Shown one piece after another: positions 41,350 through 63,822 of a DNA stretch of 64,000 nt. Below the pieces are notes generated by a model that ran no database searches, was not told the DNA's origin, and was given only the letters and a program-made list of their open reading frames with translations. The translations under genes and the position numbers were made by a program. Origin of the DNA: Felis catus. Taxonomy: Eukaryota. Every line of letters begins with the position of its first letter. Positions within the stretch are counted from its first letter, which is position 1. The stretch lies in assembly GCF_018350175.1 (NCBI RefSeq), contig NC_058379.1, positions 94,116,001 through 94,180,000 of the forward strand, written 5' to 3'.

Positions 41350-42400
41350 TCTAGCGAATGTGCGGCACGCCAGGAATAAAGGCACGAGGAAGGAGCACTG
41401 GACGGATTCTAACCTCACTTTTAAATTCTACCGCCAAACAGACAAGCAAAAGCAATGCCGGTGAAATGAGCAAGCTGATCACGGAACGCAACACGAAGCG
41501 GCGGAGCTGCGTTACCTTTTCGGCTATACTGTACAGGACCTCGTCCATCTTCATGCAAGTGGGGTCCCAGTCGTGTCCAAACCGGATGACGACCACCCGG
41601 TCTTCCTCCGAAAGGATGGCCTGGTCCACCTGCCAGCCGTTGTGCAAGTGCGGGAGCATGTACGACATCTTCAGGGCCGCTCGGGTACCTGCGGGACAGG
41701 AATTCCACGCACCCGCTCCTTCCCGCCAGACCGCACTGCCGGCAGGGGGGCCACGCGTGGCCCCCGCCCTCACCCCTCGGTCCCGCCGCGGGGAGGGCGC
41801 AAGGGCCAGCACGAGACCCTCGGAAGGGGGCCTGGACCGAGGGGACGCCCGGCGGGCCACCGCCCGGGAGCGGGGCCCCGAGGGGGTCTCCCCCCACCTC
41901 AGTTCCCCACCCCCTGCCTCCCCGGACCCCCGTCCACTCCCGCTCCAACCGCACGCACCTCTGACACCTAGAGAGTCCCGCGCTGCGGTCCTTCCGGGCG
42001 TGGACCCGCGCCGGACAGTGCGTGCGCGCCGACGTGAGCGTGCGCGTGCCCGCCGACGTGCGGCGCGCGTCCGGCGCAGCTGGGCGCGACGTCCGGAGCC
42101 GGGGGGTGCTGGAGTCTGCGCGCTGGCGGTGCGCTGGCGGTAGGTGGTCTCCGCGTGGGCAGCGCGAGCGGGGTTTTCCCGGGGAGCCGCCGCGGTTGAG
42201 AGGAGCCTGTCTTTACCAGACCTGCTGTCGGTCCCAGTCGGGCCCGTCAGAGACCCAACTTCACCGCGCCGCCACGGTGACCCCCCGGGGAGGGAGGGGG
42301 CCGACCGGACCAACGAGAAGGGTTCGGGTCTGGACGGAGAGGACGCCTGCTACGCTGGGCGGGCGGGGGGTGTGGGGGGTGGGCAGGGGGTACTGAACTG
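41350..42400. promoter_or_regulatory. CpG island / TXNL4A promoter
   Basis: GC/CpG-dense. It contains a duplicated cgtgc(g/c)cgccgacgtg motif at 42021-42036 and 42045-42060. Confidence 0.85.
41516..41668 (-). CDS. TXNL4A: TXNL4A coding exon 1
   Basis: MSYMLPHLHNGWQVDQAILSEEDRVVVIRFGHDWDPTCMKMDEVLYSIAEK|GTAACG. Confidence 0.98.
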
Positions 42401-43099
42401 AGGATCCCTGTGACTGCGGGGGAGGGACTGGACAGAGAGGACCACTTGACCTGAGGTGTGGGAATGGGAGCTGGACTGAGGACCCCCGTGACTCGGGGGG
42501 AGGGGGGACGGGGTGGACAGAGATGACCCCCGTGACTGGGGGTTGGAGGACCGCTGGACACAGAGGATGACATCGGGAGAAAGGCTTGTCCTGTTCACTT
42601 CCACACCAGGTCCCCAAATTAATCAGGGCGATCCTGCTTTCTGGACATAAATGCAGTTGATTGACGTGTGAAACCGATGTGTTCAGAAGAGCACTCCCCG
42701 CGGAGGGTCAGATCCTGCAGTGAGATAGAGCCAAGGTGGAAGTTACCCTTCCGACCGCACCACCTGAGCTGAGCTTGTAGCTCGGGCGGCACTAAGCCCC
42801 TTCGTGTTGTGGTGCAATATCCACCTCCAGATAACAATTCTTTGTTAACAAATTCTGCTGCAATCTCATTTGCATGCTACAAGATTTCATTCATTCAAGT
42901 TAAGGTGGTTTTTCTCTAGAGTCGTGGAACCTTGAGGCCTGGGTGGCTCAGCCGGTGGAACGTGGAACCTGGAACCTTGGACTCTTGATTTTGGCTTAGG
43001 TCATGACCCCAGATCATGGGATTCAGCCCTGTGTGGGGGCTCCCTGCTGAGTATGGAGCCTGCTTGGGATTCTCATTCTCTGTCTCGCTCTCAAAAAAA

Positions 43100-44750
43100 T
43101 AAAAAAGTGTGGGACCAACATTATGATCTATTTTTAGAACTTTTTCATCATCCTGAAAAAAATCTTGTACCCATTTGGCATCATTGCCATTTCCCTCATG
43201 ACCACTAACCTGTTTCCATCTCTGCAGATTTGCCTATTCTAGACATCTCAAGGGATCAAATGGAAATGTATGTAGTCTTTAATTTAAAAAAATTTTTAAT
43301 GTTTGTTTTTGAGAGGGAGACGGAGCACAAGCAGGGGAGGGGCGGAGAGAGGGAGACACAGAATCAGAAGCAGGCTCCAGGCCCCAAGATGTCAGCACAG
43401 CTGAACCCCTGAGCATTCGAACGCAGGAACCATGAGATCATGACCTGAACCGAAGTGAGGTGATTAACTGAGCCACCCAGGCGCCCCCGTGACTGCTTTC
43501 ATTTAGCATAATGATCTTAAGGTTCATATTGTAGCAGGCGTCAGGATTTAGTTCCTTTTTATTGATGGTTAACATTCCATTATATGGATACACTGCATTT
43601 TATTTATCAGCTAATTAACATTTGGGTTGTTTCCATTTCTTGGCTATTATGAACAATGCTGCTATGAACAATGTGTATAAATTTTTGTATGGATATAAGT
43701 TTTATTTCTCTGACTATATATGAGTGGAATCGTTTTGTCTTATAGTAAGTACGTTTGACATTTTGTGGCATTGCAAGTTGTTTTCAAAAGTGGCTGCACC
43801 TTTTAACGTTTCCAACAGCAATGTGTGAGGGGTTTGATGTCTCCACATCTTTACCTACACTTGTTATTTGTGTATTTTTTATTATGACATCCTGGTAGAT
43901 ATGAAGTGATACTGTTGCTTGACTTGCATTTCCCTGATGGTTAGCGATATAGAGAGCATTTTTCATGTACTTTTTCTCCATTTGGAGAAATTTCTGTTCA
44001 TATCCTTTGCCCAATAAAAAATATGGATTACTTATGTTTATTATTGAGTTTTTTAAAGTTTATTTATTTTGTGAGAGAGAGGGGGGAGACGGGCACACAG
44101 AGAGAATTCCAGGGAGGCTGTGTGCACTCAGTGCAGATCCCAACAAGGGGCTCCACCTCTCATGAACTATGAGATGATGACCTGAATTGAAACCAAGAGT
44201 CGCATGCTTAACAGACTGAGCCTCCCTTATTATTAAGTTTTAAGAGTTTCATTACGTATATAATTTAAAAATATTTCTTCCCATTCTGTTGATTGACTTC
44301 ACTTTTTATTGCTATCATTTGCAGCACAAAAGTTTTAAATTTTCATGAGGTCCAATTCATCTATTTAGTTGTTTGTGCATTTGGTATCATATCTAAGAAA
44401 CCATTGCCTCACTTAAGGTTGTGAACATTTCCTCCTGCATTCTTCTTAGAGTTTTATAATTTTAACCTTTTTTTTTTAAGTAAGTTCTAGGCCAATGTGG
44501 AACTTGAACTCGAGACCTGGAGATCAAGGGTTGTATGCTCCACAGACTGAGCCAGCCAGGTGCCCCCGTTAACTTTTACATTTAGGTCTATGATCACTTT
44601 GAGTTAACTTTTATGTATAAGGTGTCCAACTTCACTCTTTTGCATGTGGCCATCCAGTTGTTCTGGTACCATTTTTTGGAAAGATTATTCTTTCCCTATG
44701 AAATTGCCTTGGCACCCTTATTGAAAATCAATTGACTTTATTGTTTTATA
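43100..44750 (-). mobile_element. Old L1M 3'/ORF2 fragment interrupted by SINEs
   Basis: Antisense L1 motifs (ctattatgaacaatgctgctatgaac..., ttttccctatgaaattgccttggcaccc). Confidence 0.8.
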
Positions 44751-46200
44751 TTATTTTTAAATTTTTAAATATTTTTATTTTCCATGCTAACAAACACAAT
44801 ATGATGTGCCAGGCACTCTTCACAGTACTCTATAGGGGAACTCTGTGTGGGAACATGGAACCCACACAACAGCCCTATAAGATAATTGTGCTATGGTTAT
44901 CATCCCCAGATGAAATGACTGGATGGAGAAACCAAACCCCCAAGTGTTTCCGTATCTTTTTCAAGATAACCAGCTGGTAAATGGCAAAGCAGGTTTGAAC
45001 CTCTATGCTGTTTTAAAAATTTCCATTGTTTTCTTTATTTGAGTATGAACCATGTTCATAGGTTTTAAGCTTGATCATTAGAATTTTCATTTGCCATCAC
45101 CAGTGGGTGGCCCTAATTGAAAATAGTTTTAAATATTATATTTTTTCTTCAAATTTTTACTTAAATTCTGGTTAATTAACATATGGTGTAATACTGTTTT
45201 CAAGAGCATAATTTAGTGATTTGTCACTTACATGTAACACCCACTGCTCAACATGACAAGTGCCCTCCTTAATGCCAATCACCCATCTCGCCCATCCCCC
45301 ACCCATGTCCCTCCAGCAATCCTGTTTGTTCTATTTAAGAGTCTCTTATGGTTTGTTTCCTTCTCTTTTCTTCCCCCTTCCCATATGTTCATCTGTTTTG
45401 TTTCTTAAATTGCACATATGAGTTAAATCATGGTATTAGTGTTTCTCTGACTTATTTCACTTAGCATAATACACTCTAGCTCCATCCACATCATTGCAAA
45501 TGGCAAGATTTCATTCCTTTTGACAGCTGAGTAATATTCTACTGTATATACATACATCACGTCTTTTTTTTTTTATTTCACTTAGAGCATGCACACACAT
45601 GCATATGTATGACTGGAGGAAGGGCAGAGAGAGGGGGAGAGAGAATCCCAAGGAGGCTCCACACTGTCAACATGGAGCCCAACGTGGGGTTCGGTCTCAT
45701 GAACCTTGAGATGCATCCCACCACATCTTTATCCGTTCATCAGTTGATAGACATTTGGCTCCTTCCATAGTTTGGCTATTGTTAATAATGCTGCTATAAA
45801 CATTGAGGTGCATGTGTCTTCTTCGAATCATCATTTTTGTATCCTTTGGGTAAATACCTAGTAGTGCAATTGCTGGGTCATGGGGTAGTTCTATTTTTAA
45901 CTTTTTGGGGACCCTCCGTACTCTTTTTCAGAGCGGCTGCACCAGTTTGCATTCCCACCAACAGTGCAAGAGGGTTCCCCTTTCTCTGCATCCCTACCAA
46001 CATCTGTTGTGCCTTGTGTTGTTAATTTTAGCCATTCTGACAGGTGTGATGTGAACATCTTTTCATGTGTCTGTTAGCCATCTGGATGTCTTCTTTGGAA
46101 AAAAAGCCTATTTGTGTCTTCTGCCCATTTCTTAACTGGATTGTTTGTTTTTTGGGTTTTAAGTTTGATATGGTTTTTTTTTTTAGTATTTTTTTTTAAT

Positions 46201-46413
46201 TTTTTTTCAATGTTTTTTATTTATTTTTGGGACAGAGAGAGACAGAGCATGAATGGGGGAGGGTCAGAGAGAGAGGGAGACACAGAATCGGAAACAGGCT
46301 CCAGGCTCTGAGCCATCAGCCCAGAGCCTGACGCGGGGCTCGAACTCACGGACTGCGAGATCGTGACCTGGCTAAAGTCGGACGCTTAACCGACTGCGCC
46401 ACCCAGGCGCCCC
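46201..46413 (-). mobile_element. Young SINEC_Fc inserted in the tail of an older SINE (46431-46629), itself inside L1
   Basis: TSD gtatttttttttaat at 46186-46200 and 46416-46430. The outer SINE has TSD agtttgata. Confidence 0.88.
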
Positions 46414-46960
46414 TGGTATTTTTTTTTAATGCTTATTTATTTTTGAGAAAGAGACAGAGACAGCATGAGCAGGGGTGGGGTAGAGAGGGAGGGAGACACA
46501 GAATCCAAAGCAGGCTGCAGGCTCTGAGCTGTCAGCACAGAGCCTGACGTGGGGCTCGAACTCACAAGCCGTGAGATCATGACCTGAGCTGAAGCTGGAC
46601 ACCTAACCAACTGAGCCACCCAGGCGCCCTGAGTTTGATAAGTTCTTTATATATTTTGGATACTAACCCTTTATCAGATACGTCATTTGCAAATATCTGC
46701 TCTCATTCCATAGGCTGCCTTTTAGTTTTGTTGTTTCCTTTGCTGTGCAAAAGCTTTTTATCTTGATGAGGTCCCAATAGTTCATTTTTGCTTTGGTTTC
46801 CCTTGCCTCTGTCGATGTGTCTAGAAAGAAGTTGCTCTGGCTGAGGTCAAAAAGATCTTTTCCTGTTTTCTCCTCTAGGATTTTGATGGTTTCCTGTCTC
46901 ACATTTAGGTCTTTCTTCCCTTTTGAATTTACTTTCGTGTATGGTGTAAGAAAGTGGTAC

Positions 46961-47227
46961 TGTTATGGAAACTGGTCTGGATCACCCGGCAGAAGAACCA
47001 AGCAGCACTCGGAGATCTTGGAAGGCAGGAGGTTTAGTTTACACCGGTGGGCTCAGAGGAGATCATTCTCCAGAGGTGTGAGCCCAGAGCATCAGCAGCC
47101 GGATGATTTATAGTCTGTTGGAGTGTGGCAAGTGGGATGGGAAGAAAAACCCGGAAGGGGAGTCTTTAGGCAGGGACTGGAATCCCCCTGTCCTGTCAGC
47201 CGTCTTATAACAGACTTCTCCCTATCA
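46961..47227 (-). mobile_element. 267-bp solo LTR (ERV1-like) inserted into L1
   Basis: TG...CA termini and an exact 4-bp TSD GTAC (46957-46960, 47228-47231). L1 sequence resumes seamlessly. Minus-strand CTATAAAT at 47113-47106. Confidence 0.8.
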
Positions 47228-50200
47228 GTACAGTTTCATTCTTCTGCATGTTGCTGTCCAGTTTTCCCATTTCCATTTGCTGAAGAGATGTCTTTTTTCC
47301 ATTAGATACTCTCCTGCTTTGTCAAAGACTGATTGACCATACTGTTGTGGGTCCATTTCTGGGTTNNNNNNNNNNNNNNNNNNNNNNNNNNNNNNNNNNN
47401 NNNNNNNNNNNNNNNNNNNNNNNNNNNNNNNNNNNNNNNNNNNNNNNNNNNNNNNNNNNNNNNNNNNNNNNNNNNNNNNNNNNNNNNNNNNNNNNNNNNN
47501 NNNNNNNNNNNNNNNNNNNNNNNNNNNNNNNNNNNNNNNNNNNNNNNNNNNNNNNNNNGCTGTTCTGGGTCCCTTGCATTTCCATATGAACTTTAGGATT
47601 AGCTTGTCAATTTCTGCAAAAAAAAGGTACCTAGGATTTTGATAGGGATTGTGCTAACTCTGTACACCATTTAGAGAATACCATATTACCATCCTAACGA
47701 TGTTAAGTCTTCCATGGTTATAGGATGTCTTTCCATTTATGTAGGTCTTCTTTATTTCTATAACTTTTATATTTTCCAGTGTTCACATCTTGCACTTTTT
47801 TTTAGGAGGAGGTAAAATTTATCCCTAAGTATTCTTTTTTGATGATATTTAAATGGAATTGTTATTTTAAATATTTTCAGATTATTCATGACTAGTGTAT
47901 AGAAATACAATTGATTATTATTATTTTCTCCTGTTTATTTTTGAGAAAGAGCTCGCATGTGCTTGAGAGCAGGGAAGGGGCAGAGAGACGGGTACAGAGG
48001 ATCCAAAGTGGGCTCTGTGCTGAAAGCAGAGAGCCCGATCTGGGGCTGGAACTCAAGAATCGTGAGGTCATGACCTGAGCTGAAGTCGGGGGCTTAACCA
48101 ACTGAACCACCCAGGTGCCCCAGAAATACGATTGGTTTTTGTATACTGATCTTGCATTCTGCAATCTTGGTGAACCATCCATTACTTGGAAAAGTTCTTT
48201 ATTTGCATTCCTTAGGATTTTCCCTACATAAGATCTTGCCATCTGGAGATAAGCACAGTTTTACTTCTTGTTTTTCAGTCTGGATGTTTTTTTTTTCGTT
48301 GCCTAACTGCCCTGGCTGGGACGTGCAGTACAATGTTGAATAGAAGTGGCGACAGCAAGCATCTCTTGTTCCTGATTTTAGGGGGAAAGCATTGAGACTT
48401 TCACTATTAAGTATGAGGCTTGCTACGGGTTTTTCACAAATGCCATTTATGAGGTTGAGGAAATTCTGTTCTTATTTTATTGAGAGTTTTTTGTCTTGTT
48501 TCTTATGAAAAGTTGTTAGGTTTTGTGAAATGCTTTTTATGCCTCTGTTGAGATGATCATGTGGGTTTTGTCTTTTATTCCCTTAATATGGAGTATTCCA
48601 TTGACTTTTGTATGTTAAATCAAATTTGCATTCCTGGAAAAATCCTATTAGGTCACATTAACTTTTAACAATATATTGCTGGAATAAGTTTGCTAGTGTT
48701 TTTTGAAGATTTTGTGTCTAATTCATAAGACATATCAGTGTGTAGTTTTCTTGTTGTCTTTGTTTGATTTTGCTGATAGTGGCCCCGTAGACTGACTTGA
48801 AAAGCCAACAATATAGGCAAGAAAAATTGGTTATTTGGCCAAAGCTCCTCATCTTTCCTTCCATTCATTCACAACATATCCGATCATCTAGAAAATGGAA
48901 ATAAGTAGGCTAAATCATTCTGAGTGAATCAGACTGCTTGAATTACATCTTATCGTTAGAAATTGAATTCTTCATTTAAAAAATGACTAAACATAAGCAT
49001 TAAGTATTGCTTTCTGGAATTCTCAAGAGCAAGACAGATATTTGGAAGGAGCAGGTGTCCCTGTGTGTCGAATTGTGAAAGGATACATGTGTCTAAACAG
49101 AGTGCCCCTTCCTTCAGAGCAACTGGCCTGAGTTAAGTTGAGGAAGAGAGCAATTTGACTGAACTAATTGTTACTGATGAAAAGTGACTGGAGAGCCTTA
49201 TAACCCTCCCAGAGGAATTTTCATTTTTAAAAGAAAAAATGTTTTAAGTCAGATGTAAGACAATGTTAAAGTGAGACTTTCCTCTCTCTCAAATTTCAGC
49301 AGAGGCCCCAAACTGAAAATAAATGATTTAAAATGCTTACACGTTTCAGGGGCGCCTTGGTGGCTCAGTCGGCTGAGCATCTGACTCTTGATTTCGGCTC
49401 AGGTCATGATCCTACAGTCTGTGGGTTCCAGCCCCACATCAGGCTCTTCACTGACAGCGTGGAGTCAGTTTGGGGTTCTCTCTGCCACTCCCCCCTTGTG
49501 CTTTCTCTCTCAAAATAAATAAACTTAAAATTTTTTTAAATAAAATAAAATGCTTACATGTTTCAGAGCAAGAGGCCACACTGGCTTTCTCCAGATCCTG
49601 CAGAAGAAAGAATAATTTGCATATCGTTTGTCCATCACTCCTTAGGATACATAAGAGGAAGTGCAAAAATGTTTTGGGGAACAGTGTGACATCATTTCTT
49701 TGGAGGAAGCTGTGCACATGTGTATTTCCATGTGCATTCTCTTCCCTTTGGAAAAGAAAGGGGTATTCCACCCCACCTCAAGCCAAGCAAAGGAGCCCCA
49801 AAAGAATCCCTCACTTTAAAAAAATTTTTTAATGTTTATTTTTGTTGAGAGAGGGAAGGAGCAGGGGAGGGGCAGAGAGAGAGACACACAGAATCCAAAG
49901 CAGGCTCCAGGCTCTGAGCTGTCAGCACAGAGCCTGACGCGGGGCTCAAACTCACCAATAGCAAGATTATGACCTGAGCCGAAGTCAGACGCTCAACCAA
50001 CTGAGCCACCCAGGTGCCCCTCTAAAGCTTTTATTTACTTATTTTTGAGAGAAAGAGAGAATTGGGGAGGGACAGAGAGAGAGAGGGAGACAGAGGATCT
50101 GAAGCGGGCTCTGTGCTACAGCAGAGAGCCCAACGCAGGGCTCGAACTCAGGAACTGTGAGGTCATGACCCGAGCTGAAGGCAGACGCTTAACCTACTGA

Positions 50201-50660
50201 GCCACACAGGTGCCCCAAGACCTCCTCACTTTGGGTAGGAGATGGTCAGGAGGGAAAGAACCTGCCACCTAGTAGTGAAAGTTTGCTTAGCTGTAGAAAT
50301 CTCTATGTCCAGACCTGCTGAAGGGACCCGAGTTGAACTCTTGGGAGAAACTCTCCAATTTATAGAGTATGTTCTCTATGAAAGTGGCCAATGCTCAACC
50401 TTATACTAAGAGAAATGCAATTATCCCATTGCAGGAAAATGGATAAACTGAGGTGTACTTATTGGCACATATAGCTGCAAAGAGGAATGAGTGTACCTCG
50501 ACGTATAAACAGGCATGAATCTCACAGACTAATAAACTTAGAAGAAGCAGATCACCAAAGGCTACACAAGGTGCAATTCCGTGAACATAAAATGCAAAAA
50601 TATGCCAGACCAAGCCACACGTTGTTTAGGCTACTTTTACCTCTCTCTCTTATCTATCTG

Positions 50661-52303
50661 GAGGCACACTCGTTTTACTGCGCTTCACAGATGCTGCATT
50701 TTGTACACATGGAAGGTCTGTGGCAAGTCTGTCGGTGCCACTTTTCCAACAGCGTTTGCTCACTTCCAGTCTTTCGTGTTTTGGTAATTCTCGCAGTAGT
50801 CCAGATTGTTTCATTATTGTATTTGTCGTGGTGATCTGTGATTAGTGATCTTTGATGTTACTTTTGTAATGTTTTGGAGCACCGTGATCTGTGCCCGTAT
50901 TGAAACCAGTAACCAAAGGGAGACTGCGGATAATCCGCACAGCGGCAACTTTGCGCCCAGACCTTTTTGTGTGCCTTTACATGTCTCCGACCCCTCCTTT
51001 GGGGAGACGGACGGGGAGGTTGTCCTCCACGTCTTTGTTTGGCTGCCCCTCCAGCAAACTCTTTCCTGGCTGCATACTTGGTGTCTCAGTGTTTGTGTCT
51101 GCTGTGTGCTGGGCAGACACCTGGGTTCCATTACAGGATAAGGTGGTGAACTTCGTTGGCGAAAGTGTGTACCCTGACTCTTCCGCCCTCTGGCCGTTCC
51201 CCATTTCTCTCCCTCTCGACCGGCCTCCCTATTCCCTGAGACACCACAATATTGAGCGTAGGCCCGTTAATAACACTCTGGCCTCTCAGTGTTCAAGTGA
51301 AAGGAAGAGTCGCACGACTCTCACTTTAAATCAAAAGTTAGAGATGACTAAGGTTAGTGAGGAAGGCGTTTCGAAAGCTGAGGTAGACCAAAAGTTAGGC
51401 GTCTTTGTGCCAAACAGTCCAGTTGTGAATGCAAAGGAATGTTTTTGAAGGAAGTTAGAAAGTTCTGCTCCAGTGAACTCACAAATGTTAAGAAAGCAGA
51501 ACAGCCTTATTGCCGATACAGAGAAAGCTTGGTCTGGATAGAAGTGAAACCAGCCATGACATTCCCGTAAGCCAAAGCCTAATCCAGAGCAAGGTCCTAA
51601 CTCTTGTCAGTTCTGTGGAGGCTGAGAGAGGCGAGGAAGCTGCGGAAGAAAAATTTGGAGCTAGCAGAGGCTGGCTCTGAGGCTTAAGGAAAGAAGTCAT
51701 CTCGATAACATACAAGTATAAAGTGAAGCAGCGAGTGCTGATGTAGAAGCTGCAGAAAATTCTCCAGAAGATCTAGTGGAGATAATTTACCAAGGTGGCT
51801 ACTAACCAACAGATTGTCAATGTAGATGAAGCAGTCGTCTGTTGGAAGAACATGCCATCTAGGACTTTAAGCTGGAGAGGAGAAGTCAATGCCTGGCTTC
51901 ACACTTCAAAAGGCAGACTCGCTCTCTTGTTAGGGGCTAAAGTCCCCGGTGACTTTTAAGTTGAAGCCGGTGCTCATTGTCCTTTCCGAAAATCATGAAG
52001 TATTATGCTGTATGTACTCTGCCTGCTCTAGAAATGCAACAACAAAGCCTGGATGACAGCACACCTGTTTACAACATGGTTCACTAAATAGTTTAAATCC
52101 ACTGTTGAGACCTACCACTCAGAAAAAAAAGATTCCTTCTAAAACATTGCTGCTCATTGACAATGCACCTGGTCACCCAAGAGCCCTGATGGCTATGTGC
52201 GATGAGATTAGTGTTGTTTTCCTGACTGCGAACACAACATCCATTCTGTAGACCACGGATCAAGGATAATTTCAACTTTCAGATCTTTTTAAGAAATACA
52301 TTT
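50661..52303 (+). mobile_element. Tigger1 (TcMar/pogo) DNA transposon, 5' part with decayed transposase
   Basis: 5' end gaggcacactcgttttactgcgc..., transposase N-terminus ASQCSSERKSRTTLTLNQKLEMTKVSEEGVSKAE, and a later DDE-region motif ([10 protein letters not shown]). It has frameshifts and stops. Confidence 0.92.
50901..51135 (+). mobile_element. ~235-bp LTR-like insertion within Tigger1
   Basis: TG...CA termini (tgaaacc...ccattaca) with imperfect TSD gtat/ggat. Tigger1 continues on both sides. Confidence 0.6.
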
Positions 52304-52859
52304 TGGGGCGCCTGAGTGGCTCAGTCAGTTGGGCGTCCGACTTCGGCTCAGGTCATGATCTCGTGGTCCGTGAGTTCGAGCCTCGCGTCGGGCTGTGTGC
52401 TGACAGTTCGGAGCCTGGAGCCTGTTTCGGATTCTGTGTCTCCCTCTCTCTCTGACCCTCCCCTGCNNNNNNNNNNNNNNNNNNNNNNNNNNNNNNNNNN
52501 NNNNNNNNNNNNNNNNNNNNNNNNNNNNNNNNNNNNNNNNNNNNNNNNNNNNNNNNNNNNNNNNNNNNNNNNNNNNNNNNNNNNNNNNNNNNNNNNNNNN
52601 NNNNNNNNNNNNNNNNNNNNNNNNNNNNNNNNNNNNNNNNNNNNNNNNNNNNNNNNNNNGTGGCTTAGTCCGTTGAACTTCCGACTCCAGCTTAGGTCAT
52701 CATCTCACAGACGATGAGTTCGAGCCCCACATTGGTCTTGCTGCTGTCAGCAAAGAGCCCACCTCAAATCCTCTGTCTCCCTCTCTCTGCCCCTCCCCTG
52801 CTTGCACTCTCTCAAAACTGAATAAAAAATTAAAAAAAAAAATTCGTGTCCCCCCCCCC

Positions 52860-54420
52860 AAATAAAATACCTAGGAATAAACTTACCCTAAGAGGTGAAA
52901 GACCTGTACTCTGAAAACTATAGAACATTGATAAAAGAAATTGAAGATGATGCATAAGAAATAGACATTTTGTGCTTGTGGATTGGAAGAACAAATATTG
53001 TTAAATATCTACACTGCCTAAAGCAATCTACAAATCTAAATCAATCCCTACCAAAATACCAACAGCATGTTTCACAGAACTAGAACAAACAATCCTAAAA
53101 TTTGTATGGAACCACAAAGACTCTGAATAGATAGCCAAAGCAATCTTGAAAAAGAAAAAGAAAACTGGAGGTATCAAAACTCCAGGCGTCAAGTTATATG
53201 ACAAAGCTGTAGTAATCAAAACAGCATGTTACTGACACAAAAATAGACACATAGATCAATGGAACAGAATAGAAAGTCCAGAAGTAAGCCCACATTTATA
53301 TGGTCAATTAATCTTCAACAAAGGAGGAAAGAATATGCAATGGGAAAAAAGACAGTCTCTTCTTTGGTGTTGGAAAATGGTGCTGGGAAAACTGGACCAC
53401 TTTCTTACACCGTACACGAATATAAACTCAATATGGATTAAAGACCTAAATGTGAGACCTGAAACTATAAAAATCGTAGAAGAGAACACAGGCAGTAATT
53501 TCTCCAATATTGGTCATAGCAACATCTTTCTAGATACGTTTCCGGAGGCGAGGGAAACAAAAGCAAAAATAAACTGTTGGGATTACATCAAAACAAAAAG
53601 CTTCTGCACAGCAAAGGAAACAACCAACAAAACTAAAAGACAACCTACTGAATGGGAGAAGATATTTGCAAACGACATGTCCAATAAAGGGTTAGTATCC
53701 AAAATATGTAAGGAACTCACACAAAACTCAACACCCAAAAAACAATCCAATTANNNNNNNNNNNNNNNNNNNNNNNNNNNNNNNNNNNNNNNNNNNNNNN
53801 NNNNNNNNNNNNNNNNNNNNNNNNNNNNNNNNNNNNNNNNNNNNNNNNNNNNNNNNNNNNNNNNNNNNNNNNNNNNNNNNNNNNNNNNNNNNNNNNNNNN
53901 NNNNNNCAAAAACANNNNNNNNNNNNNNNNNNNNNNNNNNNNNNNNNNNNNNNNNNNNNNNNNNNNNNNNNNNNNNNNNNNNNNNNNNNNNNNNNNNNNN
54001 NNNNNNNNNNNNNNNNNNNNNNNNNNNNNNNNNNNNNNNNNNNNNNNNNTGATTCAGGAATTGCTCTAGTGGGTATTTGCCCAAAGAATACAAAAACACT
54101 AATTCAAAGGGATTTGTCCTATGTTTATTGCAACATTATGTACAATAGCCAAACTATGAAAGCAACCCAAGTGTCCAAGTGTCCATTGATAAGTGAATGA
54201 ATAAAAAAGATATGATATATATATGATATATCACATATTCATATTTATATGAATATTTTTCAGCCATTAAGAAGAACAAAATGTTGCCATTTGCAACAAC
54301 ATGGATGGATCTAGAAAGTATAATGCTAAGTGAAATAAACAAGTCAGAGAAACACAAATACCATATAATAATTTCACTCAAATGTGGAACTTAAGAAACA
54401 AAACAAATGAACAAAGGGAA
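52860..54420 (+). mobile_element. L1 ORF2 C-terminal part and 3' UTR, with N gaps (53754-53906, 53915-54049)
   Basis: [35 protein letters not shown]...[37 protein letters not shown]. Confidence 0.92.
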
Positions 54421-54759
54421 AACAAGACAAACCAAAATACTCCTTTTTTAAAAAAAAGTTAAAAAAAAGTTTGTTTAAGTAGTCTCTACACCCAACATGG
54501 AGCTCAAACTCAGAACCCCGATATCAAGGGTCACATGCTCTTTCAACTGAACCAGCCAGGTGCCCCAAACACTCTTAACTATAGAGAACATGCTGGTGGT
54601 GACCAGAGAGGAGTTGGATGGGGTGATGGGTGAAATAGGTGAAGGGGATAAAAACACTTGATGAGCACTGAGTACTGTATGGAACCGTTGGATCACTATA
54701 TTGTACACCTGAAACTGATAGACCACTGTATGTTAACTACACTGGAATTAGCATTTTTT

Positions 54760-55571
54760 AAAAATCCATAATTCATGAAAGAGGCCAAAATATCAACATT
54801 AACAGGGGTTTGGAAGCCGTTGACTCCAGCTATCATGGATGACACTGAGAGGTCCAGGACTTCAGTGGAGGAAGTAACTGCAGATGTGGTGGAAATAGCA
54901 TTAGAACGAGAAGTAGAGCCTGCGGACGGGACTGCTGCCATCTCATGGTAAAACTTGAACCAGTGGAGAGTTGCTTCTTACAGATGAGCAAAGACGTTGG
55001 TTTTTCAAGATGGAATCTACTGCTGGTGAAGGTGCTGTGAAAATTGTTGAAATGACAACAAAGGATTTAGAATATGATGACATACCTTTAGTCGATANNN
55101 NNNNNNNNNNNNNNNNNNNNNNNNNNNNNNNNNNNNNNNNNNNNNNNNNNNNNNNNNNNNNNNNNNNNNNNNNNNNNNNNNNNNNNNNNNNNNNNNNNNN
55201 NNNNNNNNNNNNNNNNNNNNNNNNNNNAACTTCACTGCTGTCTCGTTTTAAGAAATTGTCGTGGTCGTCTCAGTCTTCAGCAACCACCACCCTGATCAGT
55301 CAGCAGCCGTCAACCCCGAGGCAAGACCCTCCACCGGCAAAAAGATGATGACTCACAGAAAGCTCAGTGATGGTTAACATTTTTTAGCAATAAGCTTTTC
55401 AAATTGAGGTATGAACTTTTTTTAGACATAATGCTCTTGCGTACTTAACAGGCTACAGTATAGTGTAAACATAATTTTTATAGGCACTGGGAAATAAAAA
55501 TCACTTGACTTGCTGTATTGCGATATTCACTTTATTGGAACCAGACTTGCAATATCTCCAAGGTGTGCTTG
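54760..55571 (+). mobile_element. Tigger1 3' part and terminal repeat (N gap 55098-55227)
   Basis: aaaatatcaacattaacagg...gaggaagtaactgcagatgtggtggaaatagc...ttgcaatatctccaaggtgtgcttg resembles the Tigger1 3' end. Confidence 0.88.
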
Positions 55572-56288
55572 GAGATCATTAAATTCCAAGTAGGGGATAC
55601 CTCTTGAGCAGCAGGGAGTGGTAATGGTAGTGGTACACTTAATTAAGCTTGGCGGCACTTAATGGGCTCATTTTATTATTAGTTTTATAACTTGCATGCG
55701 TTATAAATAATTAAATAACATAACTTAAATGTGTTATAAATTTAATTAAAAATTGAATCCAGTTTTATCAAATTCTTATTTTTTTAATACAGTAACTTCC
55801 AACTGAATACAGCAGGGATTCTGGCAATTTGGATTCTTGCTGGGCTGAATTTGATGGAGCACCCTGGGTAGGTTGGGCAGTAATACAACTTAAAATAATC
55901 TTTTGTGACTACTGGTAATACTCCCTTTTTGCAAGTCAGTGGTTAAGAGCTTTTTTATGCTCTTGAGGTAGAAATAGTGAAACTTGGGGCATCTGTGTGG
56001 CTTAGTCAGTGAAGCATTTGACTTCAGTTCAGGTCATGATCTCATGGTTCGTGAGTTTGAGCCCCGTGTCGGGCTCTGTGCTGACAGCTCAGAGCCTGGA
56101 GCCCGCTTCAAATTCTGTGTCTCCCTCTCTGCCCCTCCCACACACACACTCTGTCTCTCTCTGCCTCTCAAAACTAAAGAAAACTAATAAAAATAAAATA
56201 GTCATCTTAATAAAAATAAATAAAACCTTTAGTCCATTTTGCAGACAATAACATATATCTTTTACTTTCACAGTAAAAAATGGCCAAT

Positions 56289-56710
56289 TGTATTAGTTAT
56301 TGCTGCATACATAACAAATTTTCCTAAATTCCAGTGGCTGTAAACACAAACTCTATGACCTCCCAGGTTTTTGGGTCAGGAATCCAGGAGTAGCTTGTCC
56401 AGGTGGTTCTGCCCAGATCTTATGAAACTTTAATTGAGGGTTGGCCAGGGCTGTGGTCACCTCAGGGCTCGCCAGGCTGGTGTCAGGCCTCTTCAGATCA
56501 GCTCCCAAGCTCATTCATGTGGGCCTCTGCACAGGGAAGCCTCCGGCCTGGCCCTGGCTCCCCCCTGGAGAGGGAGGAAGAGAGCCCAAGCTGTGACCTC
56601 CCGTGGCTTCTGCCGTATTCTCTTCACTAGAAGCACCGGGGTTGGGGTCCCACAAAGGTGTGATTAACAGGAGGAGCACTTTGGAGGCCACCTGAGAGGC
56701 TGCCATCACA
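56289..56710 (-). mobile_element. MLT-type LTR fragment
   Basis: tgtattagttattgctgcatacataacaaa...gggtcaggaatccaggagtagc...gaggctgccatcaca. Confidence 0.65.
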
Positions 56711-57083
56711 GCTGAAGGGCAGAAATAAAGACTCAGGCAGAATAGGGAGGAAAGTGGGTGTGATGGAGACATTGGTAACTTCAGAGGGGTGGGTCTATTG
56801 TCCTTCAGGTTTTTTAGGGACTTGTCCAGGAAATAAAATGGATCCCAGTGTTGATGTAATTTAGAAAATCTAGAGTAACTGCAATATAATGATTTATGAG
56901 AAATACATATTTCATCCTTCAGAGGACCAAACTACTTCTCAGATATATTTGGTCTTCATCCATAGTTCCTGGGAACACTTCAGAGCCAGAAAGGTGACAA
57001 GGATGTCTTAATGAAGGAGACTTCTGGACCCCACTCAAGGGCGGGGCTATTGCCAGGACGACCAAGCAGGTGATCAGAGGGTT

Positions 57084-57354
57084 GGAACTTCCGGCACAAC
57101 CCCCCCACCCCTGCGGAGAGGGGAGGGGCTGGAGGCTGAATTGGCCAATGGGAACTTCCAGACCCACCCCTGACGCCTGCATAGAGGGGAGGGGCTGAAG
57201 GCTGAATCAACCAATGGAAACTTCCGGCCCCACCCCCGACCTCCTGGAGAGGGGAGGGGCTAGAGGCTGAATCGGCCAATGGCCAATGATTTAATAAATG
57301 GTGGGGATACAAAGAAGCCTCTATAAAAGCCTTTTCTGGAGACGGCCACACTTC
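57084..57354 (+). promoter_or_regulatory. Putative LTR promoter: three ~65-bp ETS/GC-box/CCAAT modules, TATAAAA (57322-57328), and an Inr-like CA at 57349-57350
   Basis: Motifs are read directly; promoter activity is inferred. Confidence 0.55.
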
Positions 57355-57400
57355 GGCACCCGAACTCTTCCGTGTGCCGGTGGGCCGGACCCCAGGCTCC

Positions 57401-57490
57401 ATGAGGACAGAAACTCGAGTTGGGCACCTCGCTCTGTGGATCTCTCCCATCTGCGTGTTGCTACACACTCTTTGTATCTTTAAGGAACCG
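57401..57490 (+). CDS. Putative LTR-derived upstream coding segment (30 codons), in frame with the dehydrogenase after splicing
   Basis: ATG at 57401, no stop, phase-0 donor CCG|GTAAGC at 57490/57491, and phase-0 acceptor at 57918/57919. There is no transcript evidence. Confidence 0.35.
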
Positions 57491-57921
57491 GTAAGCACAG
57501 GTCAGCCTTCCCCTGAGCTCTGTGAGGCTCTCGAACAAGTTAACAGAATCGAAGGATTCTGCAGAATCGGCTGCTGGTTGGTCACAGGCACAGGTACCTG
57601 GTACCTGTGACTAGAGTCTGAAGGTGGGGGCTGGGAGGGGGCATCTTATAGGACAGAGTCCCACGCTGGGGGGCGGGGGGGGGGGCATCTTATAGGACAG
57701 AGTCCTTAACCCGTAGGATGTGATGGTGTCTCTGGTAGATAGTGTCAGAATTGAATTGAATTCTGGGACACGCTGCTGGGATCCTGAGAACTGCTTGGAG
57801 TTGCGGGTGGGGGACTTGGAAATTGGTGCTCAGAACCTTAAAAGAGCAACAGAGGAGCATATTGATTGTCTCTTAAAGACTGTCTTTGACAGCAGAAATT
57901 GTGCTTCTCTTCCTGCAGGCC

Positions 57922-58303
57922 ATGGGGGATCAGGACTTACCTGGCGTTTTGGTGTCTGGATTGGAAGGACCTCATGGTATATGTGAGGATCACATTGGAG
58001 ATCTGCAGAAACACTTTACTCTCATTACTCTGCAAGAATTTTTGGAAAATAACACACGATTCGGTCCAAAGGTCCAAGCTGTATACATCTGGGGCGGAAA
58101 GCCAGCCGTTACCCAGGAGCTCCTGCAGAGTCTGCCCTCCTTGAAGATAATTGCCAGTGCAGGAGCAGGTCTAGATCACCTGGACCTGAAGCTCATTGCC
58201 AGCTGTGGTGTGAAGGTGGCCAACACACCACAGGCGGTTTCCAGTCCCACAGCAGACATGGGGATGGCCTTACTGCTGGCCGCAGCTCGCAGAGTCGTGG
58301 AAG
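57922..58303 (+). CDS. GRHPR/GhrB-like D-2-hydroxyacid dehydrogenase, coding exon 1
   Basis: Acceptor cttctcttcctgcag|gccATGG with strong Kozak context. MGDQDLPGVLV...LPSLKIIASAGAGLDHLDLKLIASCGVKVANTPQAVSSPTADMGMALLLAAARRVVE(G) contains the family motif GAGxDHxD...VxNTP. Donor AAG|GTACCC. Confidence 0.93.
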
Positions 58304-59158
58304 GTACCCAGTCCTTGGAGATGCTGGTTTTCCAAAGACAGCAGATGACAGATACTTAATGCAGATGATTACATAATGTTATCTTCAAACTACAGGTCTT
58401 TCCTGGGCCCTGATTTCTTCCAGGACTTTGTTGCACTTGAGAACTGGAGTCACTTTCAGTCGTTTGCAGCGTACTTAGTGCCTGAGCCCAGCTTCCCAGC
58501 ACATATCGGCCATTTTCTCCCCCACCAGATTCCTCTCATTCACAGGCAGTAAACGTGTGTGTGGAGTAATTTCAACAACGAAATTACTATAGAAATGCCC
58601 TTGGGGTGATTCTTTGGTCAGTCAGCATGCTACTCTTGGTTAAAGACCCACGAGTGAATAGGCAGAACCTGACCTCTCCACACAGGGGACATCTCTGGGA
58701 ATATCCCCAGGAAAGGCAGGGCAGCAGTTCAACACCCCTCAGTCCCCCAGTCCTCCTGATGGAGCTCTGAGCGAAGAGGAAGATGAAGCTTTGACGAAGA
58801 GGCTTGAGGAAAGAGGAGACAGGAATCAGGCTCTGGTTCGGATTCTGGTTGCGGGTTCACGCACATGCACACACACCAACATACCAACACCAGCAAGTTT
58901 TAACGAGAAATCCTGCCGTAATGTAAAAGAAGTTGGTATTTCAAAGCTTTGCACCAGGACGCTCTGGTTTTGTTATGAGGAAACTGTCTTTGTCCCTTTC
59001 CTTCACCCCTTGCAGAAACCCTTGTCTTCTGTCAAGAGCTGCATGAGGGCTGTGTCTGCCGCAGGCACCCTCTAACTCACTACTCTGCCCCAGTAAGGTT
59101 GTGGATTTCTGTGTCTGGTGACATCCGCTCTGACCACTCTGTCCCTTGTATATTTTAG

Positions 59159-59330
59159 GTCATAGGTTGGCTATTGCACCGGATACAGAGAACTTTTCTG
59201 CAAACTGGATGGGTCAAGAAGTTACAGGGGCCACTCTGGGAATCATCGGCATGGGCAGCATTGGCTATAAGATTGCTCAGAGGGCCAGAGCATTCGAAAT
59301 GAAGATTCTGTATCACAATAGGAAACGCAG
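59159..59330 (+). CDS. GRHPR/GhrB-like dehydrogenase, coding exon 2 (Rossmann GxGxxG)
   Basis: tattttag|(G)[56 protein letters not shown](R)|GTAAAC; phases match its neighbours. Confidence 0.95.
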
Positions 59331-60786: not shown

Positions 60787-60965
60787 GAAATTAGAGGAGG
60801 AGGAGGCTGTTGGGGCAACTTACTGTGAGAGTCTGGATGACCTGCTTCAGCGATCGGACTTTGTGCTGTTGGCCGTGAGCCTGACGCCCCAGACCCAGAG
60901 GCTGATTGGGAAGAGGGAGCTGAATCTGATGAAGCCCACTGCCATTCTCGTCAACATCGGCAGAG
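60787..60965 (+). CDS. GRHPR/GhrB-like dehydrogenase, coding exon 3
   Basis: cccttcatag|KLEEEEAVGATYCESLDDLLQRSDFVLLAVSLTPQTQRLIGKRELNLMKPTAILVNIGR(G)|GTACTT; includes the catalytic Arg motif NxxRG. Confidence 0.95.
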
Positions 60966-61881: not shown

Positions 61882-62151
61882 TCTGATACTTTACTTTAAA
61901 AAATAAATAACAGTGTTAGTTTGGTTATTTGGCATTTATGCAGTGCTTTGTGTTTACAGGCAAGAGGGAGTTGGCCCTGTGCTGATACCAAATATTGTGG
62001 GCTGGTGTGACATTTATAAAGAGTAGAGGATCAGTGCTGACATCAGACATCCAGGCCACTCACCTTTGTGGGGTGGGGGGCCAGAGTACATACGACTAAC
62101 AACAGCCACCCGTGTATCATCTGTAAAACAAGGAAAACAATGCTTGCCACA

Positions 62152-62884
62152 TGAGATAGTGTAATTTGTAAGAAATACATATTTGGTCATTCAGTTGTGG
62201 TTTTCATCCATAATTCCTGGCTCTTTCCTCACCAAATTGACTAAGTGTTGAGAGTGATAAAGGTGTCTTTCGTTAATGGAGACGGCTGGACCCCACTCAA
62301 GGGCGGGGCTGTTGCCAGGACGACCAACCATGTGATCAGAAGGTTGGCCCTTCCAGCCCCACCCCCGACCTCTGTGGAGAGGGGAGGGGCTGGAGGCTGA
62401 ATCAGCCAATGGCCAAAGATCTAATCAACTGTGGCTATACAAAGAAGCCTCGGTAAAAATGCCAAAGGACCGGGTTCACAAGCTTCTGGAGATTGGGAAG
62501 AGTGCTGTGCGGGGAGGGATGGAAGCCCCACAGCCTTTCCCCAGACCTGTCCCTATGATCTCTTCCTCTGGCGGTTGATTCTTAGCCTTTGTCACCTCCC
62601 TGAGCCACCAGGTGAGCGGCAGTGTTCCCCTGAGTTCTGTGAGCCGCGGCAGCAAATTGCCAGTTGGTCAGAAACACGAGTAACAAACAGCCTGGGACTT
62701 CCGACCGGTGTCCGAAGTCGGGGTGGGGGCATCTTACAGGACTGAGCCCTTACTGCGCAGGATCTGATGCTGCCTCCGGGTGGACAGTGTCAGAATTCGC
62801 AGGCACCCTGCAGGTGTCCCGAGAACTGCCTGAGCTTGTGTGGGGGGGACCCTCCCTACCCCAACTTTGGAACCGGGTCCAAGA
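62152..62884 (+). mobile_element. Second MER21-like solo LTR, in dehydrogenase intron 3
   Basis: Shares long blocks with 56880-57834 (ggaccccactcaagggcggggct.ttgccaggacgaccaa, ggagaggggaggggctggaggctgaat..ccaatggccaa). Confidence 0.8.
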
Positions 62885-63725
62885 ACTCTAAAACAATTGT
62901 TGAAAGACCAAAAACCCTCATGGGACCGAGATAATATGCTTCAGAGTTCTCTGAAAATTCAGGCCATCTAGGTGAGCAGGAAGGACCAGTGCGTATTAGG
63001 TACCTTCAGGAATGTCAGAGGCTGGCGAGCACACTACAGATTCTGGAGAAGCAAACGCCCCAGGAAAGCCTCTGGGACTGGGCTTCTCCCCCAGCAGCAC
63101 CAGCATACCAGGGCTGTGCCCCGACCAGCGGGCCGGCCGCTCCCAGCCCGTCAGCAGAAAGGAGGCAGTCTTTGGGCCCCTTGCAGGGCTCTGCTGGAAG
63201 GAAAGGGCTTTCTTCTCAGCTTCTACTCAAACATGTCCTGCTTTTCTGTATTTGAAATGACAGTTACAGGATCGTGCTTGTGGCTTAGTTTTTTCGTGTG
63301 CATATACAGCTATCTGGGGGCTGTGTCCTCAGCCTGAACTCCTAGGTGGTGCTGGGAGGTGGTGTAATAAAATGAGACGGGCCCGGCTTGAGGTCAAACA
63401 AACCTGGGCTCAGATCTGAGTCTATATGTTAGAAGCTGTGTGACTTTGGGTGTTTGTAACCTAAGGGCCTCAGTTTCCTCAAGTATAAAATGAATATTGA
63501 CTTCGCCAGGTTAGTGGAGGATTCGGTGAAGGCCTGAGTGCGCTTCCTAGTATGTGGTGGGCTCACAATGTCTGATGATGAACTGGCAGAATGACACTCA
63601 CGTGCTCTTTGTCAGACCTTTGACAAGATCAGGATGTGTTTGGAATAGCGGCTAATGTGACCAAAGCATCTATCCCATGTACTCTTAATGGTAGCGACTC
63701 CAGAGGAACTGTCTTGTTGACGCAG

Positions 63726-63822
63726 GTCTGTTAGTCGATCAGGACGCCCTGGTGCAGGCTCTTCAGACTGGGGTTATTAAAGGAGCAGCACTGGACGTGA
63801 CGCACCCGGAGCCCCTGCCCAG
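63726..63822 (+). CDS. GRHPR/GhrB-like dehydrogenase, coding exon 4 (not in the ORF track); the final exon(s) with the catalytic His lie beyond the window
   Basis: ttgttgacgcag|(G)LLVDQDALVQALQTGVIKGAALDVTHPEPLP(R)|GTAAGA; the DVxxxEP motif carries the catalytic Glu, and phase 1/phase 2 fit. Confidence 0.93.

Follow-up and report, generated by a model that had tools for sequence, protein, structure and literature searches.

The window analysed here, a 64,000-nt stretch of felid DNA, carries a gene whose exons match Felis catus RefSeq XP_006939048.2, a member of the D-2-hydroxyacid dehydrogenase family annotated as 'probable 2-ketogluconate reductase'. Its first conserved coding exon (57919..58303, + strand) has an ATG at 57922 in strong context and matches PF00389 in a domain search (E 1.7e-15). 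Further coding exons on the + strand map to this protein at 59159..59330, where the NAD-binding glycine motif lies, at 60787..60965 and at 63726..63822, as does the last exon, 2.5 kb past the window end (L064:2517-2690). Felid proteins carry PF00389 and PF02826 in precomputed annotation, and the catalytic and NAD-binding domains stand in open frame. A preliminary description of this DNA had called the dehydrogenase an orphan. This proved wrong: the gene has 201 relatives at E ≤ 1e-20 across amniotes, the best 120 of the 201 belonging to mammals, birds and reptiles, and is better described as uncharacterised. A literature search, with subscription journals and supplements outside its scope, returned no paper on the dehydrogenase gene or on the long terminal repeat (LTR) described below. 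Enzymes of the 2-hydroxyacid dehydrogenase family handle glyoxylate, and cats form oxalate stones.

The neighbourhood of the gene has CpG-rich sequence on both sides. Upstream, a CpG island at 41500..42600 (GC 0.71, CpG observed/expected 0.81; no strand assigned) includes a first exon on the - strand whose translation leads us to take the neighbour gene to be TXNL4A; the island faces the dehydrogenase gene from 15 kb away. Downstream, about 1 kb separates the dehydrogenase stop codon from a CpG-rich stretch with a reading frame (L064:2690-3760) that resembles the start of RBFA. Some camel and koala dehydrogenase records bear an extra PF02033 domain on the same protein. Irregularities among the orthologues include Thr where the start Met is expected in the cluster of a porpoise record, and deletions or odd ends in canids (raccoon dog and an Arctic fox cluster); the proteins concerned are P0156, P0157, P0164, P0180, P0061 and P0154. 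No dog, bear, simian or mouse record occurs among the best 120 of the 201 matches. The gene may have been lost several times, which would make dog a weaker species for comparison.

The splice acceptor of the first conserved coding exon reads CAG/GCC ATG, with the exon starting at 57919 and only 3 nt before the ATG at 57922. This arrangement was correctly described before and had been taken as a sign of an upstream exon. It does not point to the LTR, since the models of other mammals read ...QA-M at the same acceptor; on this protein comparison the layout is ancestral, and we rejected it as evidence for the LTR.

Upstream of this acceptor lies a solo LTR in sense orientation to the gene (56880..57834, + strand), which we take to be MER21-like. 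It starts with TG and ends with CA (57833-57834), and the 4 nt flanking it on each side agree at three of four letters, a candidate target-site duplication. Its orientation follows from the AATAAA and near-TATA of its relatives, which fall on the + strand. The amplified modules reported previously are present as three tandem 66-nt copies on the + strand at ~57083-57283, each with a G-rich run, a CCAAT and a CTTCC core, motifs we regard as GC-box-like, CCAAT and ETS-like. The core elements also lie where they had been placed: TATAAAA at 57322..57328 (+ strand), a CA whose A, at 57350, is 28 nt past the first T of the TATAAAA, a donor CCG/GTAAGC after 57490, and a 428-nt GT-AG intron at 57491..57918 (+ strand). 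Together these would delimit an LTR-derived 5' exon at 57350..57490 (+ strand), of which the start is predicted and the 3' end is backed by gene models. An AATAAA also occurs inside the LTR on the + strand at 57293, 29 nt upstream of the TATA; the sister LTR described below lacks one.

We evaluated how readily such a combination arises by chance. Of 2000 sequences obtained by dinucleotide shuffling of 56880-57700, 79 contained TATAWAW and 6 contained TATAWAW with a CA and a G/GTRAG donor, a pattern that was defined after the site had been seen. CpG observed/expected reaches 0.68 at 57330-57560, against 0.19-0.34 in the flanking stretches. The donor, previously called strong, is present, but it matches 7 of 9 consensus letters and is equalled by five other sites in 56993-57623. 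A second, sister solo LTR lies in an intron of the gene (62160..62890, + strand) and, as had been noted, has one module and no TATA; it also lacks AATAAA and holds its own donor-like CAG/GTGAGC at 62610. Just before this sister LTR, at 61960, begins the short alternative exon with which cat isoform X3 terminates.

To place these features in the family, related copies were compared position by position after duplicates and the fragment L002 had been dropped. The family is old and dispersed: first-look searches gave 227 and 617 candidates, 40 of which were scored each time, and the distant copies, which form the majority, are 68-84% alike to the LTR. At the TATA position, TATAWAW is absent from all 39 anchored copies, 16 of which read CATAAAA. 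Across 51 rows, 46 have one module, three have none and L005 has two; three modules occur in this LTR alone. At the donor position of 44 anchored copies, four copies with poor anchors being left out of this count and of the poly(A) count, the GGTAA core is found in 23, some GTRAG nearby in 18 and the full G/GTRAG in one. On this comparison it is the TATA, the number of modules and the finished donor that set this LTR apart, with the donor latent in the family.

Two other features, loss of the poly(A) signal and CpG richness of the whole LTR, did not survive as arguments for exaptation. Directly before the donor, the former AATAAA position (57481..57489, + strand) reads TAAGGAACC. The site is indeed altered, as the preliminary description held, since AATAAA is kept there in 28 of the 44 anchored relatives, yet its absence is nothing special: 16 of the 44 copies and the sister LTR also lack it. 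CpG richness of the whole LTR was rejected because the sister LTR and L005, its two neighbouring copies, are CpG-rich as well (0.44 and 0.48). The local ratio of 0.68 over the LTR exon, against a family median of 0.14 (49 copies, over a wider stretch), still counts in favour of the reading proposed below.

Use of the donor is best supported by RefSeq, which is automated annotation and can pass between species by homology. Splicing 57490>57919 puts an ATG at 57401 in frame with the enzyme and adds 31 residues; this ATG, in weak context, and its 30 codons (57401..57490, + strand) are identical to residues 1-30 of XP_006939048.2. In five felids, namely cat, cheetah, tiger, jaguar and clouded leopard, the RefSeq X1 protein has the same 31-residue start; the extension recurs, joined at the same donor, in cat X3 and clouded leopard X3/X4. 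The predicted junction is therefore present in the automated models of five felids, and these models support the view that a spliced 5' exon of the dehydrogenase gene comes from the LTR. This exon is not wholly untranslated, since it includes the in-frame ATG at 57401, which the preliminary description had overlooked. The main ATG at 57922 is in strong context.

The encoded extension is hydrophobic, with a peak 19-residue hydropathy of 1.89. Between felids its 31 residues show 0, 0, 0 and 1 changes, where the 334-residue body shows 1, 3, 7 and 6; these are too few to measure constraint. A search for proteins of near length gave three matches that carry the extension, all of them named RefSeq felid records. 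No sequencing-derived (Logan/ENA) protein with the extension was found: none of nine short matches carried it, and all 19 cluster members are named records. The extension is missing from at least four cat X2 accessions, which encode the 334-aa protein and so are consistent with more than one 5' end; among the 15 cluster members listed, of 19, models of leopard, two lynxes and two Prionailurus lack it too. In one clouded leopard model the first ATG corresponds to 57336 and thus lies 14 nt upstream of the predicted start, and one Prionailurus model contains LTR sequence from 57011 and enters the LTR again at 57482.

To look for other 5' ends, the N-terminal extensions of 19 mammal proteins were mapped to 41700-57720; four proteins had no extension and 15 were aligned. 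The clearest placement was that of the black rhinoceros RefSeq extension, which aligned at 56506..56739 (+ strand) with a score of 179 against a maximum of 117 in 30 shuffles. This candidate older exon (56506..56736, + strand) lies 140 nt upstream of the LTR and mostly within an antisense element that we take to be MLT1-like (56290-56740); the cat letters after 56736 read GC, not GT. Both donor positions in this element read GC in cat (56556, 56736), and its 3' part marginally matches the start of UniRef A0A8C6AUN9. Two other extensions were marginal (P0164, 65 against a shuffle maximum of 58; P0188, 62 against 57), and the remaining twelve of the 15 scored below their own shuffles over 41700-57720. 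None of the 15 mapped convincingly to the TXNL4A CpG island, near which there are no + strand donors of at least 8/9. Several accessions per protein exist in meerkat, pig, buffalo and musk deer also. Given the rhinoceros exon, the gene probably had an upstream exon independent of the LTR, and the LTR probably landed in the short intron that followed it.

The age of the insertion is indicated by a spotted hyena predicted protein, KAF0885354.1, which runs through this LTR immediately 5' of the gene and implies that the insertion is older than the cat-hyena split. The hyena sequence has one module in a shortened stretch, SVK where cat has SIK at the TATA, and V in place of the cat ATG. This suggests that the TATA and ATG changes are felid; the hyena could instead have lost them. 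A metagenome scan for mammalian contigs near the gene kept 80 loci, all intronless at 45-54% identity, and none was usable for dating.

Trees of the LTR copies point to a composite history. They were built from 42 rows after 16 loci had been dropped (duplicates, a fragment, poor anchors) and one skipped. In the enhancer part the closest relatives of the LTR are the sister LTR and L005, the latter 0.66 Mb off (99/90; bootstrap not settled, 0.763), and the LTR and L005 have the same module junction. The TATA-to-poly(A) part instead places the LTR in another subfamily (100/99, 98/94). Over 515 nt the sister LTR is 97.5% identical to L005, with no matching flanks. The simplest reading of these patterns is gene conversion among nearby copies, and parallel GC-ward change could lie behind part of the enhancer grouping.

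Two matches were noted in this context. L065 (G000:C27 ~93,513,700-93,514,500, - strand), a solo LTR 0.66 Mb away, is 97.5% identical to the sister LTR over 515 nt (window 62379-62893) but only 84% in its 5' part, and has two modules and no flanks in common with it; this similarity is likely to mark a recent conversion tract between inverted copies. A 281-nt lone LTR piece, L002:1356-1632, lies 1.25 Mb away on the other strand and is 96.4% identical to window 57428-57708. It holds the lost poly(A) site and the donor, lacks the 5' LTR part and matching flanks, and is possibly a templated insertion. Segmental duplication was rejected as the source of the near-identical copies, since among the 14 best blastn rows per locus no match ran on from the LTR ends, the other matches being scattered short repeat-like pieces.

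These data allow us to propose a model for the 5' end of the gene. We favour, as reasonably probable, a reading in which the LTR provides felids with an alternative promoter and first exon beside an older upstream start; that the LTR acts as a promoter at all is likely. The three GC-box/CCAAT/ETS-like modules, with a TATA made from the near-TATA of the family, would set a start near 57350. The transcript would then read through the inactivated poly(A) site and be spliced to the ancient acceptor from a donor that is latent in the family and stronger in this copy. Through leaky scanning the weak ATG at 57401 would be passed over by the majority of ribosomes, which would produce the standard 334-aa enzyme; a minority would start there and produce a 365-aa form with a hydrophobic leader. 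Historically, the enhancer half was probably homogenised with neighbouring LTR copies by gene conversion, and the promoter was probably sharpened later, in felids.

This model keeps part of the earlier proposal, that the LTR is promoter and first exon, and gives up the rest. The spliced exon stands on the five felid models, whereas a role as sole promoter is not supported, given the four or more cat models without the extension and the rhinoceros exon. For the same reasons, and because the clouded leopard model starts upstream, the claim that the enzyme had been 'rewired under retroviral control' goes beyond what is shown.

An alternative that we regard as unlikely is that the LTR piece is an internal exon, or the tail of a first exon, in transcripts started further upstream, at the CpG island or in the MLT1-like element, with an incidental TATA. 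The clouded leopard and Prionailurus models, which begin or run upstream of the predicted start, are what this would produce, and the CATAAAA of the family (16/39) is one change from a TATA. In fourteen RNA or guessed-RNA runs, 0.73-0.93 of the words sampled from 57330-58310 are present, where a spliced transcript would give about 0.5; this is weak evidence, the runs having been ranked by word share and one of the 20 runs with such words being recorded as RNA. Against an incidental TATA is the way in which the TATA, the CA at 28 nt, the three modules and the CpG peak align, the motif set occurring in 6 of 2000 shuffles; the AATAAA at 57293, on the same strand just before the TATA, disfavours a long exon running through there.

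A second alternative, likewise improbable in our view, turns the favoured reading the other way: the LTR would be the main or only felid promoter, the older upstream exon having been replaced, and the other cat models would use other LTR donors. Such donors exist, with 7/9 sites at 57069, 57500, 57593 and 57623 that could explain the extension-less models, and the core promoter is unusually complete for the family. The GC at the rhinoceros-type donor position (56736) and the lack of a + strand donor of at least 8/9 near the CpG island would also fit. The decay of the upstream donor in cat is itself an inference, however, as the rhinoceros donor letters are not in evidence, and the CpG island does face the gene from 15 kb. 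The multiple 5' variants of meerkat, pig, buffalo and musk deer further argue that the gene has long varied at its 5' end.

A more elaborate scenario, to which we give little credence, has the LTR turned into a promoter by modules imported and multiplied through conversion, followed by the TATA, donor and ATG, with the leader sending a cat-specific form of the enzyme to a membrane or the secretory route. Finally, the 57490>57919 join could reflect rare mis-splicing or annotation transferred from one species to another, and have no role in regulation. This agrees with the extension having neither a sequencing-derived protein nor measurable constraint, but is very improbable, since models of five species from both Felinae and Pantherinae share the join and it recurs in several isoforms that differ in their downstream splicing.

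Returning to the favoured reading, an LTR alternative promoter beside an older start is not new in kind: many LTRs are known to act as promoters, and several human genes use LTRs of the MER21 group. According to excerpts of PMC4419796 and PMC11007075, MER21A drives human CYP19A1, HSD17B1 and ST6GAL1 from measured tissue-specific starts, and a TATA box is reported for the ST6GAL1 LTR promoter. The likeness to cat is a solo LTR upstream of a metabolic enzyme gene, with a TATA in the case of ST6GAL1; the difference, as far as these excerpts go, is that the MER21A cases are primate insertions with measured starts, whereas the cat LTR is an older, Feliformia insertion with a predicted start only. 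MER21C, in the portion consulted of 10.1101/2023.10.30.564869, forms the first exon of GPR1-AS/Liz in one clade and has ELF1/2 motifs in the shared region. Here too an ancient copy, by our reading MER21-like, serves as first exon in one clade, with ETS-like motifs, but GPR1-AS/Liz, a non-coding or long-isoform transcript, acts in setting an imprint, and the cat exon is spliced to a coding gene with an in-frame ATG.

The effect on the protein has its counterpart in ENTPD1, where the excerpted account in PMC11007075 describes a MER39B first exon, that is, an LTR promoter exon that alters the N-terminus, with documented placental expression. The N-terminus changes in the same way, although LTR family and lineage differ from those of the cat LTR. 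If the model is true, an uncharacterised 2-hydroxyacid dehydrogenase has gained a lineage-specific 5' end and possibly a retargeting leader.

The balance between promoters that we favour resembles that of human NAIP, for which the parts seen of PMC1781489 give about 12% of testis starts to a HERV-P LTR: a sense LTR upstream of the gene serves as a minor alternative start beside a non-LTR main promoter. In the same source a MER21C start was unconfirmed by 5' RACE, a caution for the cat LTR. This balance also accords with the general statement, in the passages available of PMC3649676, that promoters from transposable elements (TEs) usually give minor variants and that full exaptation means that most or all transcripts start in the TE.

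As regards history, the same excerpts of PMC3649676 describe, by functional comparison, an alternative promoter of prolactin that arose from later substitutions in an old TE ('epistatic capture'). The cat LTR would likewise be an old shared insertion that acquired its promoter features later in one lineage, although this is inferred from one hyena protein. Non-allelic conversion among LTRs, leaving patchwork copies, is described in the section consulted of PMC4921805 from human Y-chromosome polymorphism; here, by comparison, the proposed tracts link old solo LTRs at distances of 5 kb, 0.66 Mb and 1.25 Mb, one of them covering the modules of the candidate promoter. If true, the cat LTR would add to these systems a carnivore case with a traceable build-up, from a hyena-shared insertion through the exchange of modules to later felid changes.
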